A stretch of DNA of 56,904 nucleotides from Flavobacteriales bacterium (GTDB lineage Bacteria; Bacteroidota; Bacteroidia; Flavobacteriales_D; JAHECK01), in assembly GCA_024641785.1 (NCBI GenBank), contig JAHECK010000003.1:1-56904 (forward strand), written 5' to 3'. The notes below the pieces were generated by a model. It saw only the letters and a list, made by a program, of their open reading frames with translations. It was not told the origin of the DNA and searched no databases. The translations under genes were made by a program, and so were the position numbers. Of the stretch, positions 8,607 through 15,041 are shown piece after piece (position 1 is the first letter of the stretch; the number at the start of each line of letters is the position of its first letter).

Positions 8607-8624
8607 ACAAACAAGATATAATTG

Positions 8625-8657
8625 AAAAAGCTACTCCTAAGAGTAGCTTTTTTTTTG
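8625..8657 (+). terminator. Rho-independent terminator after atpC
   Basis: The stem agctactc (8629-8636) / gagtagct (8641-8648) has the loop ctaa and is followed by a 9-nt T-run. Confidence 0.8.
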
Positions 8658-9268: not shown

Positions 9269-9362
9269 ATGATATCTCGGGTAGGTCAGTATCGGTTGTA
9301 ATAAGGTACTGACCACAGATTACTCTAATTTCGGATAGTGCATTGTGCACTATTTACCTAAC
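9269..9362 (+). promoter_or_regulatory. Conserved structured leader element upstream of lipoprotein pair 1 (12-nt box + hairpin A + hairpin B + tacctaac)
   Basis: The box atgatatctcgg is at 9269-9280. Hairpin A is GGTCAGTATC (9284-9293) / GGTACTGACC (9305-9314). Hairpin B is atagtgca (9335-9342) / tgcactat (9346-9353). The tacctaac box is at 9355-9362, 13 nt before the ATG. The same architecture recurs at 12386-12485 with compensatory substitutions. Confidence 0.5.
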
Positions 9363-9375
9363 CAAATCTATTATT

Positions 9376-10317
9376 ATGTTTAAAAATATGAAATTAATAG
9401 GAGTCATCTTTCTATCAATACTTCTATTAACAAATTGTAAAAAAGATGATAAAGTGGCCGATAATGGTCAAGGAGAAGTTGTTTTCTCACCTAATCAAAC
9501 TTCAAACTTTGAGAAAAGTGCAGAAAATAACTGTGAACTCGAGGTTTCCTACGCAATGGTTGTAGTGAATGAAATGACCTACAATCTTCCCGTGTTCTAT
9601 ATCGATGGAATGCTTACTACACAAGCGATTAAACTTAATGCAGGGGACTATATACTTGAAGAGTTTATTCTAATGAATGATAATGAAACTCCGGAAATCC
9701 TGGATGATGATATCGTAGTAATGTCTTCAGTAAATGAAGAGGGAGAATTCGAGAGTTATGTCGATATGACACTCCCTTATGAGTTTACTGTAGAAGCATT
9801 CTTGAAAGTAGAGCTTCATGTAGAAGTGATCTGTTATTATCCTGAATATTATGACTGGTACGGATTTGAATTTTTCACCGTATGGGTAACTAATATTCAT
9901 GAATGGTACTTCTTTGGAGATTTATGTCTTGAATATCCAGATCTATATGAAGGAAGCTTATATGAATTGCAAACTGAAGGTTTACAAGCCGACGTTCCAG
10001 CTATTTTTGAGATCGAAGTATGGCGAAATGAAGAATACCTTGGCACTTTCAGCAATGAAAGCTATCTGGGTGAAGAAATGCCATTGAAAGTAATTTATGC
10101 GGATAGGGTAGGAATAGAAGATAATTACGAATTCAAACTATACGTTCTTGTTAATGTAGGCGAAGGATTCGATTATGAATATTTCTATACCTGGGCATTT
10201 ACCGACCTTGCAGAGCTTGATATGGGAGAAGATGGAGTTACTGATTTCGTAATTGGTGACTGTGTGTATGATGGAATTGACCTTGTACTTCCACCTTGGA
10301 TGGATTATCCTAACTAA
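9376..10317 (+). CDS. Uncharacterised surface-lipoprotein family, 'short' member of pair 1
   Basis: The start is set at MFKNMKLIGVIFLSILLLTNC by alignment with the three paralogs. It has a lipobox LLTNC followed by KKDD. It is roughly four-fifths identical (by eye) to the N-terminal ~310 aa of the next gene and ends at ..LPPWMDYPN. Confidence 0.85.
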   Translation: MFKNMKLIGVIFLSILLLTNCKKDDKVADNGQGEVVFSPNQTSNFEKSAENNCELEVSYAMVVVNEMTYNLPVFYIDGMLTTQAIKLNAGDYILEEFILMNDNETPEILDDDIVVMSSVNEEGEFESYVDMTLPYEFTVEAFLKVELHVEVICYYPEYYDWYGFEFFTVWVTNIHEWYFFGDLCLEYPDLYEGSLYELQTEGLQADVPAIFEIEVWRNEEYLGTFSNESYLGEEMPLKVIYADRVGIEDNYEFKLYVLVNVGEGFDYEYFYTWAFTDLAELDMGEDGVTDFVIGDCVYDGIDLVLPPWMDYPN

Positions 10318-10328
10318 TAATTAGTGTT

Positions 10329-11747
10329 ATGATGAATAATTTGAGATTAATAGGGGTCATCTTTTTATCAGTTCTTCTATTAACGAATTGTAAAAAAGAT
10401 GATAAAGTGACCGATAATGGTCAGGGAGAAGTTGTTTTTTCAACTAATAAAACATCAAATTTTGATAAGAGTGCAGAATCTAACTGTGAGTTAACTGTTT
10501 CTTATGCATTTGTTGTAGTGAATGAAATGACCTATAACCTGCCTGTATTCTATATTGATGGAATGATCACTACACAAGCCATTAAGCTTGATGCAGGGGA
10601 TTATACATTAGAGGAATTTATTCTAATGAATGATAATGAAACTCCTGAAATATTGGATGACGATATCGTGGTAATGGCCTCTGTAAATGAAGAGGGAGAA
10701 TTTGCGAATTATGTGGAAATGACCCTCCCTTATGATTTTACTGTAGAAGCTTTCTTAAAAGTTGAGCTTCATGTAGAAGTGATCTGTTATTATCCTGAAT
10801 ATTATGACTGGTACGGATTCGAATTTTTCACTGTATGGGTAACAAATATTCATGAATGGTTCTTCTTCGGAGATCTATGTCTGAAAGCACCTTACGAATA
10901 CGAAGAAAGCTTATACGCTGAACAAAGTCAGGGATTGCAAGTAGATGTTCCTGCTATTTTTGAAATTGAAGTATGGCGAAATGAAGAATACCTCACTACC
11001 TTCAGCAATGAAAGTTTCTTAGGGGAAAACAATCCTCTAAAAATCACTTATGCTGATAGAGAAGGTATTTTGGATGAGTATGAGTTAAGACTTAATGTAC
11101 TCGTTAAAGTGGGTGACGGATTTGAATATGTTTATTTCTACAGCTGGTTCTTTACTGATGTAGCTGAGCTTCCTACAAATGGGGATGGTGTTACCGACTT
11201 TGTGATCGGAAACTGCGTATATGATGCACCCGACTTGTTATTAGCTCCTTGGATGAATCTTCCTATGGGAATTACATATGACTGTGTTCACCCTGGTGAA
11301 AATAGCTATTTCGATATCACTTTAAGCAATATCGGTCCTGGTTATGATATCCAAAATGGAGGTCCATACGAAGGATGGTGTGCTGATCTTGATAATACGA
11401 TCGGTCCTGGTGCCTATATAATGGATGCAAAAAGTTCATTATATCCTGAACTTCTACCGGGAGTATGGCAATTGAAAGGGCCTGCGTTGAATGCTTGTAA
11501 CTGGTTGTTTAACAATCTCGATAATTATGTATATACACCTGAAGAAATGCAAGATGCATTATGGTGCCTATTTGATGGCGTACCATGTACAGGTGTTGGT
11601 GCAACTATGGTTGCAGATGCATTGAATCATCAAGACTTCTCTCCTCTTCCAGGAGGATGGGCTGCGGTTCTATTCTTTGATGTGAATGATGATCCATTTA
11701 TTAATACGGATCATACTCAAATCACATTTTTCGTGGTAGATCCATAA
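10329..11747 (+). CDS. Uncharacterised surface-lipoprotein family, 'long' member of pair 1, with extra ~160-aa C-terminal Cys/Gln-motif module
   Basis: 472-aa ORF starting 11 nt after the short gene. It has the same signal peptide and lipobox. The C-terminal extension contains GWCADL (Cys351, nt 11379-11381) and EMQDALW (Gln408, nt 11550-11552). Confidence 0.88.
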   Translation: MMNNLRLIGVIFLSVLLLTNCKKDDKVTDNGQGEVVFSTNKTSNFDKSAESNCELTVSYAFVVVNEMTYNLPVFYIDGMITTQAIKLDAGDYTLEEFILMNDNETPEILDDDIVVMASVNEEGEFANYVEMTLPYDFTVEAFLKVELHVEVICYYPEYYDWYGFEFFTVWVTNIHEWFFFGDLCLKAPYEYEESLYAEQSQGLQVDVPAIFEIEVWRNEEYLTTFSNESFLGENNPLKITYADREGILDEYELRLNVLVKVGDGFEYVYFYSWFFTDVAELPTNGDGVTDFVIGNCVYDAPDLLLAPWMNLPMGITYDCVHPGENSYFDITLSNIGPGYDIQNGGPYEGWCADLDNTIGPGAYIMDAKSSLYPELLPGVWQLKGPALNACNWLFNNLDNYVYTPEEMQDALWCLFDGVPCTGVGATMVADALNHQDFSPLPGGWAAVLFFDVNDDPFINTDHTQITFFVVDP

Positions 11748-11772
11748 AGCGATCAACTAATTAATTAAAAGG

Positions 11773-11798
11773 AGAGGCGGACATTCCGCCTCTTTTTG
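11773..11798 (+). terminator. Rho-independent terminator after lipoprotein pair 1
   Basis: The stem agaggcgg (11773-11780) / ccgcctct (11786-11793) has the loop acatt and is followed by ttttt. Confidence 0.8.
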
Positions 11799-12499: not shown

Positions 12500-13468
12500 A
12501 TGTTTAAAAATATAAAACTAATAGGAGTGATTTTTTTATCCGTACTTCTATTAACTAATTGTAAAAAAGATAATAAAGACGACTCTATGTCTCCCGGTGA
12601 AATGGTATTTGCCGCTATAGACTACGATGATACTGAAAAGGATGGATTTGATTTTTTCTGTGATGAGAATTTAATCGTTCATCATGCATATATCGTTCTG
12701 GAAAATGAAGATGCAGTTGAAAGTATCCATGAACCATTGACTTTTACTTTGGATAATAAATTATATACACAAAGTATAAAATTGGCTCCGGGCGATTATA
12801 TTATTAAAGAATTTGCTCTAATGTCTGAAGATAATCAAGTCGTAAAAGCAACTCCAATGCTAGGAGCTGATTTTGATGAGTATGTTTCCAATCCTATTGA
12901 TGATCTAGTTGATTTTCATATTACTGCTTTTGAAAAAGCACAATATGCTATTGATGTGCTGTGTTATATTCCAGCTGAATGGGACAACTTTGGTTTCGAA
13001 TGGTTTGAAGTAACTGAGATCACATTGAGAGAACAATGCTTCTTTGGCGATATCTGTATCGATGATTTTAACGCCTATGCCGGATCATTGTATGATAACC
13101 CACTAGTGAATGATGAGGTTGCTATTTATAAAATTCTGGTTTTTCGTGATCGTATAGATAATCCTTCACCAGTAGGTATGTTCTATAACACATATTATGA
13201 AAATGATGTATTAATGTATAGATCACCACTTTGCGTTCAATATGCAGATTATGATCTTGATGTCAATAACTTCGAATTTGAGTTATGGATCTTAACCAAT
13301 TTTGGCTACGAAAAATTCCATGTCTGGACTTTCACTGATGCTGAAAGAATTCCAAGTAATAATTTTGATTATGTTCCCGGATATGATGACGGAGTAGTGG
13401 ATTTCGTATTTGGTGACTGTGTAGTAACTCCTTCCGATTTAGTGCTAACTGGTCCTATTCCTAATTAA
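12500..13468 (+). CDS. Uncharacterised surface-lipoprotein family, 'short' member of pair 2
   Basis: The 322-aa product starts MFKNIKLIGVIFLSVLLLTNCKKDNKDD. It shares the Cys pattern and motifs of the family (TQSIKL.PGDY, VLCY, FGFEWFEVTEIT.REQCFFGD.CI, DGVV.FV.G.CV). Confidence 0.85.
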   Translation: MFKNIKLIGVIFLSVLLLTNCKKDNKDDSMSPGEMVFAAIDYDDTEKDGFDFFCDENLIVHHAYIVLENEDAVESIHEPLTFTLDNKLYTQSIKLAPGDYIIKEFALMSEDNQVVKATPMLGADFDEYVSNPIDDLVDFHITAFEKAQYAIDVLCYIPAEWDNFGFEWFEVTEITLREQCFFGDICIDDFNAYAGSLYDNPLVNDEVAIYKILVFRDRIDNPSPVGMFYNTYYENDVLMYRSPLCVQYADYDLDVNNFEFELWILTNFGYEKFHVWTFTDAERIPSNNFDYVPGYDDGVVDFVFGDCVVTPSDLVLTGPIPN

Positions 13469-13517: not shown

Positions 13518-14990
13518 ATGTTGAACAATATAAAATTAATAGGAGTTATATTTCTTTCAATTCTCCTGTTAACAAACTGTAAGAAAGAAGTACAAGACAC
13601 GCAACAACCCGGTGAATTGGTATTTGCTGCGATTGATGTGAATACTGAAAAAGATGGTATCGATCAGTGGGATATTATGTGTAACGAAACCCTGATACCT
13701 GTTAAAGCTAGAGTAAATTTAAATGGTGAATTTTATTACCCAGCTCTCTTTATGTCAGAAGGAAAATTATTAACTCAAAGTATAAAACTTCCTCCTGGAG
13801 ACTATACAATTTTGGAGTTTAGTTTATTAACTGCAGATGATATCGTAGTGAAATCAACTCCGATGGAAGGGTCTGATTTTGCCGATTACGTTTCCAATCC
13901 TATCGATGGTGATGTTGACTTTACTATTGCATCATTTGTGAAAAGTGAATTTGAGATGGATGTTCTTTGTTACCTTCAAGCATATTATGAAAGCTTTGGT
14001 TTCGAATGGTTTGAAGTAACTGAAATTACCATTAGAGAACAATGCTTCTTTGGTGACTTCTGTATTAAAGATGTCAATCAATATGCACAATCATTGTACG
14101 GACTTAATGGAGTTACTATTGATGAAAAAGCGATTTTCAAAATTCGATTAAATAAGTTTGATAATGATTTGAACGAGTATGTTTATTATGCAGAATTCTA
14201 CAACTTTAATAATGGTGTTTATACATCCCCTTTATGTGTTGAATATGCAGATTATGACGCTACAGATGATTTTTACCAAGCTGAATTATGGATCTACGTT
14301 ACCAGTGGTGAAACCTGGGATTATGTTTATTTCCATACCTGGGATTTTCAAGATGCTGAAAGTATCGAAGAGCTTTATGGTGTTGGAAATGATGGAGTAG
14401 TAGAATTTGTGTTAGGTAATTGTGTCGATGACGAAACCGATCTATTATTACCTCCTTGGATGAATTTACCAACAGGACCTGATTATGATTTTACATTATC
14501 TAATGGTGGTGTTGGGCCTGATGCATACTGGCATATGACAATAGGTGGGATAAGTAGTTCACTTTATGATATGCAGAATGTTACTAATTATCCTGGATGG
14601 TGTGCAGATGAATTTACAACTATTGGTAATGGAACCATCTGTATGGATGCAATAAATTCTCTATATCCTGATATGTTACCAACTTATTGGTTAGATGCAA
14701 TCCCTAGTGGAGCTAATGCGCTTACAAGAAAACAAGCTATTTGTGCTGCAAACTGGTTGTGGAATAATGAAGCGATGTATGCACCATATACTTTTATGGA
14801 AATGCAAAATGCACTTTGGAATCTATTTAATAATTTAAATGTGGGGACTTCAGGTAAATCCTTTGTTATGGCTGATGCAGCCAGAGATCATCTTGATTAT
14901 TCACCATTGCCAGGTGGATGGGCCGCTATTTTCTTTGTGCCTTGTGATGATTCACAACTTCAAATGACCTTCTTCGTGGTTGATCCATGA
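13518..14990 (+). CDS. Uncharacterised surface-lipoprotein family, 'long' member of pair 2, with C-terminal Cys/Gln-motif module
   Basis: 490-aa ORF with the same signal peptide and lipobox. The C-terminal module has GWCADE (Cys362, nt 14601-14603) and EMQNALW (Gln430, nt 14805-14807). It ends in the shared motifs SPLPGGWAA and TFFVVDP. Confidence 0.88.
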   Translation: MLNNIKLIGVIFLSILLLTNCKKEVQDTQQPGELVFAAIDVNTEKDGIDQWDIMCNETLIPVKARVNLNGEFYYPALFMSEGKLLTQSIKLPPGDYTILEFSLLTADDIVVKSTPMEGSDFADYVSNPIDGDVDFTIASFVKSEFEMDVLCYLQAYYESFGFEWFEVTEITIREQCFFGDFCIKDVNQYAQSLYGLNGVTIDEKAIFKIRLNKFDNDLNEYVYYAEFYNFNNGVYTSPLCVEYADYDATDDFYQAELWIYVTSGETWDYVYFHTWDFQDAESIEELYGVGNDGVVEFVLGNCVDDETDLLLPPWMNLPTGPDYDFTLSNGGVGPDAYWHMTIGGISSSLYDMQNVTNYPGWCADEFTTIGNGTICMDAINSLYPDMLPTYWLDAIPSGANALTRKQAICAANWLWNNEAMYAPYTFMEMQNALWNLFNNLNVGTSGKSFVMADAARDHLDYSPLPGGWAAIFFVPCDDSQLQMTFFVVDP

Positions 14991-15011: not shown

Positions 15012-15041
15012 GAAAAAGACGGGCACAGCCCGTCTTTTTTA
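15012..15041 (+). terminator. Rho-independent terminator after lipoprotein pair 2
   Basis: The stem gacgggc (15018-15024) / gcccgtc (15028-15034) has the loop aca and is followed by tttttt. Confidence 0.85.

Follow-up and report, generated by a model that had tools for sequence, protein, structure and literature searches.

Thioester domains (TEDs) are adhesin modules which, in the literature searched up to a 2026 preprint, are those of Gram-positive Firmicutes and Actinobacteria (PMC4450167, PMC6194298). Their thioester cysteine belongs to a [YFL]CΦζ motif of strand C, and the glutamine that forms the bond is provided by the ΦQζΦΦ motif of strand Q, the C-terminal one, these two being the only universally conserved TED residues (PMC4450167, PMC6194298). 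A further motif, TQxxΦW on helix α2, provides a Gln and a Trp that hydrogen bond to the backbone of the Cys; this helper pair is dispensable for the bond and is not universal (PMC4450167, PMC6194298). Walden et al. tested 12 TEDs predicted from sequence, and every one of them carried the thioester bond (PMC4450167). Here we analyze a 56,904-nucleotide stretch of DNA from a Flavobacteriales bacterium (contig JAHECK010000003.1; the whole stretch is called the window below), and in particular one of its genes, long paralog 2 (long2). We propose, with a probability of about 65%, that the protein carries a diverged class-I-type TED as the tip of a lipoprotein stalk, with Cys362 and Gln482 as the probable thioester pair. 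The features of long2 on which this proposal bears are as follows.

13518-14990, + strand: the long2 gene, taken from the open reading frame (ORF) list, encoding a predicted lipoprotein of 490 amino acids; the span includes the stop codon.
14442-14987, + strand: the TED-like C-terminal module, residues 309-490, with six β-strands and a three-helix bundle according to AlphaFold2 (AF2) and Foldseek.
14598-14609, + strand: W361-C362-A363-D364, the equivalent of the TED motif [YFL]CΦζ, with Cys362 as the predicted thioester cysteine.
14751-14765, + strand: N412-W-L-W-N416, located on helix α1; both of its Asn are near-invariant.
14802-14819, + strand: M429-Q430-N-A-L-W434 on helix α2, corresponding to the helper motif TQxxΦW and, as read here, not the site of the bond-forming Gln.
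14889-14891, + strand: the codon (cat) of His458, the histidine of a proposed catalytic triad, not conserved.
14958-14987, + strand: L481-Q482-M-T-F-F-V-V-D-P490, the last β-strand and equivalent of ΦQζΦΦ, with Gln482 as the predicted bond-forming residue.

Long2 belongs to a set of four paralogs, two short and two long, whose alignment shows that the N-terminal ~300 residues are common to all of them. The short paralogs end at a PPWM linker and are thus without the C-terminal module, while the long ones run on for ~170-180 residues past it. Long paralog 1 (long1) and long2 are 42% identical in the N-terminal stalk and 51% identical in the C-terminal module (84 of 164 aligned positions). An earlier examination of the letters of this DNA, to which we refer as the sequence-only reading, listed a number of motifs retained in the module, and all of them are indeed present in both long paralogs: WCAD (residues 361-364 in long2, 350-353 in long1), TIG.G, MDA..SLYP..LP..W, A.NWL.NN, EMQ.ALW.LF, [ND]H.D[FY]SPLPGGWAA, and Q[IM]TFFVVDP. 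Its codon positions for Cys362 (tgt, 14601-14603) and Gln430 (caa, 14805-14807) are also correct. The region it considered starts at 14451, the codon of Pro312 in PPWMNLP, and ends at 14990, the last base of the TGA stop, and it includes the Gln482 codon (caa, 14961-14963).

The AF2 model of residues 309-490, obtained with an 85-sequence alignment, has a predicted local distance difference test (pLDDT) score of 90.3 and a predicted template modeling score of 0.88. In the numbering of the module, it runs through strands 16-20, 30-35, 47-53, and 64-72, a short helix, the three helices 96-108, 118-130, and 139-148, and finally strands 160-167 and 174-179. Cys362 directly follows strand 47-53, Gln430 and Trp434 are located in helix 118-130, and Gln482 is in strand 174-179. 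The same order of elements is found in class I TEDs, which consist of a six-stranded barrel together with a bundle of three helices (PMC6194298).

A Foldseek search of the Protein Data Bank (PDB) with this model gave 125 matches with E ≤ 10, the best 50 of which are considered here. Ranks 1-19 are all thioester domains, the best being SfbI (5A0L, E 3.6e-6), and the others include CpTIE (5A0G and 5A0D), Cpa (4C0Z, 2XID, 2XIC, and 4BUG), and BaTIE (6FWV). The Foldseek probability is 1.00 for ranks 1-12 and 0.13-0.20 for two BaTIE chains (ranks 18-19), and the first non-TED match appears at E 0.85. The sequence-only reading had suggested a comparison with TED, transglutaminase-core, and NlpC/P60 folds; among these 50 matches it is the TED fold that is recovered and not the other two.

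The conservation of the candidate residues was assessed with two sets of homologs. The larger one comprises 88 domain copies with a mean identity of ~30%, drawn from the cluster representatives of a 1.84-billion-protein library. The second, independent set contains 28 copies from named GTDB genomes, all of them metagenome-assembled genomes (MAGs) of uncultured Bacteroidota; it was gathered through N-terminal patterns, so that its taxonomic picture is skewed toward the stalk family. The family is small, a word-indexed search finding 25 relatives and an exhaustive phmmer search of the 1.84 billion cluster representatives finding 70.

In the two sets, Cys362 is kept in 87/88 and 27/28 copies, Gln430 in 87/88 and 28/28, and Trp434 likewise in 87/88 and 28/28. 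The two asparagines of helix α1 are preserved too, Asn412 in 86/88 and 28/28 and Asn416 in 88/88 and 28/28. Asp364 is present in 84 of the 88 copies, and 85 of the 88 have W, F, or Y just before the Cys, where long2 has Trp361. Gln482 is found in every copy, 88/88 and 28/28, two truncated alignment rows of the larger set having been read by eye and both carrying the Q-strand. Further near-invariant positions among the 88 copies are Tyr337, Ser381, Pro388, Ala432, Gly466, Asp489, and Pro490. The selective retention of the Cys and of the Q-x-A-L-W motif, noticed originally in the two paralogs of this genome, is therefore upheld in 88 and 28 copies at ~30% identity, and the alignment of outside homologs extends the conservation of Cys362 and Gln430 far beyond this genome. 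The related claim of a conserved reactive-cysteine module that is present in the long paralogs and absent from the short ones also finds support, since by their sequences the short paralogs end at PPWM.

The module displays counterparts of all three TED motifs. W-C362-A-D occurs at a strand end, with Trp in place of Y/F/L of [YFL]CΦζ, and M-Q430-N-A-L-W434 lies in helix 118-130, with a hydrophobic residue in place of the Thr of TQxxΦW. The third counterpart is L-Q482-M-T-F on the last strand of the model, and the pairing of its invariant Gln with Cys362 is suggested by the topology. The strand, LQMTFFVVDP, also resembles TLQSLVFIP of a Pfam-positive TED (L043, described below). We assign the bond to Cys362 and Gln482 because the helix residue Gln430 aligns with TQxxΦW and Gln482 is on the last strand; on the basis of the model, Gln482 is thus most likely the bond-forming glutamine. 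The sequence-only reading had listed Q[IM]TFFVVDP as a motif, which it is, but had given it no role; we read it here as the strand of the bond-forming Gln. The spacing of 120 residues between Cys362 and Gln482 is comparable with those of CpTIE (Cys138-Gln267) and SfbI (Cys109-Gln261) (PMC4450167).

The relationship with known TEDs can also be followed at the sequence level. Scans of all four paralogs against Pfam and NCBIfam at E ≤ 10 gave nothing relevant, and a profile of a small subgroup reached Cpa (4C0Z) at E = 1 only, on the QxAIW motif, with MQNALW aligned to TQNAIW. A domain-only profile built from 30 sequences (A6) was then used on 401 Bacteroidota genomes, where it matches, in two genomes, the N-termini of ORFs of ~1,500-1,600 amino acids with per-genome E-values of 4.4e-6 and 8.1e-6. 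The one of these that was examined (L043) passes the Pfam TED model PF08341 with 46.2 bits against a cutoff of 22. It encodes a protein of 1,581 amino acids (L043:3257-8002, + strand) with an N-terminal TED followed by SdrD_B, DUF11, and pAdhesive_15 domains and a tail of the type IX secretion system (T9SS; Por_Secre_tail). Because L043 passes PF08341, Bacteroidota contain Pfam-positive TEDs; judged by this sequence, canonical TEDs exist in Gram-negative Bacteroidota, although the literature searched calls TEDs Gram-positive.

The comparison of A6 with the L043 TED by hhalign gives a probability of 87.7% and E 3.4e-6, and pairs PGWC362AD with KFYCID, NWLWN with YILNN, and MQ430NALW with VQLAIW. 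In addition, PF08341 is the sole Pfam match, in scans at E up to 1, of three distant family members, P0108 (E 0.0064), P0087 (0.063), and P0086 (0.1). These matches are below the threshold, the best having 17.3 bits against the cutoff of 22, but they are colinear with the model. The hhalign link and the subthreshold PF08341 matches argue that the module is a diverged TED and not a mere look-alike, and the TED relationship put forward in the sequence-only reading is in agreement with both the fold and this profile comparison. These analyses show the motifs, their conservation, the fold, and the homology to Pfam-positive TEDs.

The rest of the protein agrees with a surface adhesin. The two parts that precede the module are the following.

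13518-13580, + strand: signal peptide with the lipobox LLTNC; residues 5-20 form a helix, and Cys21 (13578-13580) is the predicted lipid-attachment site.
13581-14441, + strand: stalk of two β-sandwich domains (~30-155 and ~170-300) according to the model and Foldseek, shared with the short paralogs.

The full-length AF2 model, with a pLDDT of 88.7, consists of the signal helix, the two β-sandwich domains, and the TED. Its best Foldseek match is 4ECN, the N-terminal immunoglobulin (Ig)-like domains of BT_0210 from Bacteroides, a lipoprotein-like protein (E 5e-9), and it also matches the whole of BaTIE (6FWV, E 9e-7), the TED of CpTIE, and Cpa. In an alignment of 67 full-length relatives, the lipobox Cys21 is invariant, and the stalk residues Cys55, Cys151, Cys182, and Cys302 are invariant or nearly so; these four might be linked in two disulfides, which would stiffen the stalk. 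Cys21 together with the four conserved Cys fits an extracytoplasmic, disulfide-stabilized stalk. No SpaA, CnaB, or ester-domain Pfam match was obtained for the stalk domains. Long2 is probably an extracytoplasmic, surface-exposed lipoprotein adhesin, its lipidation, exposure, and adhesin role being predicted from these sequence features.

Other members of the stalk family carry different tips. One of them (L020:3697-5637) has an AIR9-type Ig tip and a weak Lcl_C/Fib_succ_major-like, that is, lectin-like, region, and three more (L009:7992-9740, L025:629-2104, and L031:5995-7308) have non-TED tips without a Pfam match. These sequences suggest that the stalk serves as a scaffold on which tips can be exchanged. 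The occurrence of the same stalk with other tips, and of the module with PEP-CTERM or PEF-CTERM-like anchors (see below), fits a modular surface adhesin.

By analogy with the described TEDs, the following mechanism can be envisaged. The protein would be anchored through the lipidated Cys21, with residues ~30-300 serving as the stalk and the compact TED (residues 309-490) placed at the C-terminal end. As the protein folds, Cys362, positioned where strand C ends, would use its thiol to attack the amide in the side chain of Gln482, which belongs to the last strand, and the departure of ammonia would leave an internal Cys362-Gln482 thioester. Gln430 and Trp434 from the neighboring helix would pack on the backbone of the Cys. 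A nucleophilic amine of the target, typically that of a Lys, would then attack the thioester, resulting in an intermolecular isopeptide bond to Gln482 by which the cell would be tethered covalently to its target.

A number of observations weigh against this proposal. Compared with solved TEDs, the model reaches TM-scores of just 0.45-0.5 at root-mean-square deviations of 5-8 Å, and neither long1 nor long2 matches the Pfam TED or any NCBIfam model even at E ≤ 10; by score, long2 is thus a member neither of Pfam PF08341 nor of the NCBIfam TQXA domain model. Searches of the PDB sequences with phmmer and with profiles gave no significant TED match. A phmmer search with the Pfam-positive L043 TED likewise finds no PDB TEDs and, since a genuine TED misses them as well, the silence of the sequence searches against the PDB is uninformative for this superfamily. 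The hhalign alignment with L043 ends before the last two strands, and the pairing of Cys362 with Gln482 is based on topology and motif equivalence. One natural copy (P0030, L002:6001-7401) has Ser in place of the Cys (AWSAD), which implies that not every copy needs the thiol. As for the anchor, the residue at position -1 of the lipobox is an Asn, which is unusual. In Bacteroidota, the export signal of lipoproteins consists of acidic residues just after the lipidated Cys; the long1 sequence CKKDDK matches this rule, and that of long2 (CKKEVQD) does so only in part.

The Ser-containing copy is altered at its C-terminus too, where QLVES replaces VDP. From its sequence, this variant may be degenerate or may form an oxoester.

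If the fold is accepted but the chemistry is not, long2 would possess a noncovalent binding tip in which Cys, Gln, and Trp are kept for packing or for ligand contact. Thioester formation is a prediction here, and such a tip would be in keeping with the scores of the family below the Pfam TED thresholds, with the natural Cys-to-Ser copy, and with TM-scores of only ~0.5. On the other hand, two residues still invariant at ~30% identity, the Cys and the Gln of strand Q, make up the universal TED pair (PMC4450167, PMC6194298), the Gln and Trp of the helper helix and the two Asn are invariant as well, and a lone, unpaired, invariant Cys in a presumably extracytoplasmic module would be unusual in a purely structural role. 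Together with the record of Walden et al., in which 12/12 predicted TEDs carried the bond (PMC4450167), this makes a noncovalent tip unlikely, though it deserves to be taken seriously. It is improbable, in turn, that a thioester is formed with Gln430 of Q-x-A-L-W, the partner favored by the sequence-only reading. Gln430 is conserved in 87/88 copies, and the equivalent Gln adjoins the thioester Cys in TED structures (PMC4450167), but it sits on a helix and, in Cpa and in L043, has the TQxxΦW helper motif as its aligned counterpart, whose Gln can be mutated in TEDs without loss of the bond (PMC4450167, PMC6194298). Also speaking against Gln430 is P0091, a protein of 358 amino acids with two tandem TED-like modules. 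The second of these has lost the equivalents of Gln430 and Trp434 (ERAIR) and retains WCVD and the strand-Q Gln equivalent to Gln482. The assignment of Gln430 as the partner of the Cys is accordingly abandoned in favor of Gln482.

Two further possibilities concern a different use of Cys362. It is the only conserved Cys of the module, the stalk common to both types of paralogs contains four invariant ones, and the short and long genes look like cotranscribed pairs, all of which could be taken to favor an intermolecular disulfide bridge, to the short paralog or to some other protein, or else a role in binding metal or in sensing redox state. These functions would leave unexplained both the invariance of Gln482, Gln430, and Trp434 and the exclusive match to the TED fold, and a second conserved Cys or His for metal binding is missing, so that we regard them as very improbable. 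A structural disulfide for Cys362 was also considered and was rejected on conservation and fold. The sequence-only reading had offered, as an alternative, a catalytic triad of the papain, transglutaminase, or NlpC/P60 type composed of Cys362, His458, and Asp477/478, which would make the module a peptidase or transamidase. In both long paralogs the His is indeed followed, at a distance of 17-20 positions, by an acidic residue, but this arrangement is contradicted by the homologs, where His458 is retained by 41 of 88 copies, 30 others having Gly, and by 4 of 28 in the second set; conservation extends to no other His, and Asp477/478 falls within a gapped, variable loop. Nor is any papain, transglutaminase, or NlpC/P60 fold found among the best 50 of the 125 Foldseek matches. 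The triad is therefore rejected, and we leave it only the slightest chance. The reading that we retain is the TED tip with the Cys362-Gln482 pair.

In the window, the four paralogous genes are codirectional and lie between atpDC and a PFOR-like gene. The other genes and elements of the cluster are the following.

8624-8653: terminator-like hairpin after atpC.
9343-10317, codirectional with the other three paralogs: short paralog 1 (short1), 324 amino acids.
10329-11747, codirectional with the other three paralogs: long1, 472 amino acids.
11235-11744, + strand: the TED-like module of long1, with Cys351, Gln408, and Gln464, the sole other copy in this genome.
11769-11797: terminator-like hairpin after long1.
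12500-13468, + strand: short paralog 2 (short2), 322 amino acids, stalk only, 49 nucleotides upstream of long2.
15012-15040, + strand: intrinsic-terminator-like hairpin after long2, closing the short2-long2 unit.

All four paralogs start with a near-identical signal peptide ending in LLLTNC. The intergenic gaps inside the short-long pairs are 11 and 49 nucleotides, and each pair looks like one transcription unit because hairpins follow atpC, long1, and long2. This layout suggests two bicistronic units, each with a gene for a tip-less stalk followed by one for a TED-tipped protein. In a two-component adhesin, the short paralog, which has no tip, could act as partner or spacer. The assembly (3.3 Mb, 219 contigs) contains two copies of the module only, those of long1 and long2. 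A syntenic locus, with the order atpD - short - long - short, is present in 'Flavobacteriales bacterium CSMAG_231' (L001:2588-9229), where the contig stops short of the expected position of long2.

The module is rare, a match being found in 9 of the 401 sampled Bacteroidota genomes, that of the window included, and several of the matches in these nine genomes are further diverged subfamilies. In Bacteroidota MAGs, the relatives occur in tandem arrays, which combine long forms with short ones made of the stalk alone. Other architectures were encountered as well. The module occurs with a PEP-CTERM anchor (P0082) and, in a Methanomicrobiaceae MAG, as a short secreted protein with a PEF-CTERM-like tail (P0107, L045:599-1303) on a contig with archaeal context; this last case indicates, as far as gene content and context can tell, that the family has archaeal members. 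The L045 gene adjoins a four-subunit POR operon and DUF5803. The profile search for short relatives returned archaeal and other architectures, none of them with a precomputed Pfam TED annotation.

Five further proteins (P0095, P0096, P0100, P0104, and P0109) combine the module with a hydrophobic, basic-ended C-terminal tail that is PEF-CTERM-like, below threshold. In another six (P0046, P0057, P0065, P0097, P0098, and P0108), the module stands behind an N-terminal domain without a Pfam match, which carries the conserved motifs LEGIPQTKKGxPKIGxFPY ... AAHAVV ... ETAWG. There is also a second, more diverged family of Bacteroidota lipoproteins, in which a TED-like module with the motifs GWCID ... 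INYLLN ... IQVAIW ... VQTVFAVVE directly follows the lipobox (L037:1357-2034, L038:1216-1884, and L041:4244-4909, with the longer relatives L039, L040, L042, and L044). Some of its members stand alone with ~222 amino acids and others have C-terminal extensions, and the L042 copy has Thr in place of the Cys.

On this basis we put forward, tentatively and at somewhat less than even odds, that functional TEDs extend beyond Gram-positive bacteria to the lipid-anchored stalks of uncultured Bacteroidota, to PEP-CTERM proteins of bacteria, and to proteins of methanogenic archaea with PEF-CTERM-like tails, and that they represent an old, prokaryote-wide surface mechanism combined with at least four anchoring systems. 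If true, covalent adhesion would reach beyond its known range into diderm bacteria and archaea, and a family whose members now bear no annotation but that of hypothetical proteins could be approached functionally. The family also shows that PF08341 overlooks an entire branch of the superfamily. TEDs serve as protein-engineering tools, to which the family would add new thioester modules of small size whose specificity loops differ.

Among the known systems, complement C3 and α2-macroglobulin employ the chemistry proposed here, an internal Cys-Gln thioester that captures nucleophiles, but they do so with a CGEQ sequence in an α/α-toroid, whereas the module has no C-x-E-Q and its Cys and Gln are 120 residues apart. 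None of these proteins is among the best 50 of the 125 Foldseek matches of the domain, while the full-length search gives weak matches to chains of complement C5, C4b/C3, TEP1r, and A2ML1 (E 0.03-0.09). A C3-like CGEQ thioester was rejected, the sequence being C-A-D-E-F and the fold a β-barrel with helices. Class II TEDs (BaTIE 6FWV, SaTIE, and EfmTIE86) show a weak match of the head lobe (Foldseek E 0.3-0.8). They contain a β-sandwich insertion of ~75 residues and a slipknot (PMC6194298), for which there is no room in a module of 182 residues, although the whole architecture of BaTIE, TED plus Ig stalk, is matched by the full-length model of long2 (E 9e-7).

The TED of L043 comes from the same phylum as long2, and its Cys, NN helix, and QxAIW motif align with those of the module. 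It differs in passing the Pfam threshold, in forming the N-terminal tip of a giant multidomain protein secreted by the T9SS, and in its spacing between Cys and Gln, which is 95 residues compared to 120 in long2. Gram-positive TIE proteins have an N-terminal TED, a stalk of isopeptide or ester domains, and a C-terminal LPXTG anchor. Long2 does not have this architecture but its mirror image, with a predicted lipid at the N-terminus and the TED at the C-terminus, and no isopeptide or ester domain is recognized in its stalk. Whereas the hosts of class I TEDs are Gram-positive in the literature searched, that of long2 is an uncultured Gram-negative member of the Bacteroidota. Differences from class I TEDs are also seen in the motifs: the Cys motif is WC[AG]D instead of [YFL]CΦζ, the helper motif opens with a hydrophobic residue instead of Thr, and the module family has an invariant NWLxN and a nearly invariant C-terminus in ...VDP. 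In several respects the module resembles the class I TEDs (CpTIE 5A0G, SfbI 5A0L, and Cpa 4C0Z/2XID; PF08341). Fold and order of strands and helices are the same, the size is similar (176 amino acids for the TED of CpTIE and 182 for the module), and the three colinear motifs, namely the Cys at the strand end, the QxxΦW helix, and ΦQxΦΦ on the last strand, are all present, with Cys and Gln among the few invariant residues in both. Finally, class I TEDs are located distally on the β-sandwich stalk of a surface-anchored protein, and the same location is predicted for the module of long2.

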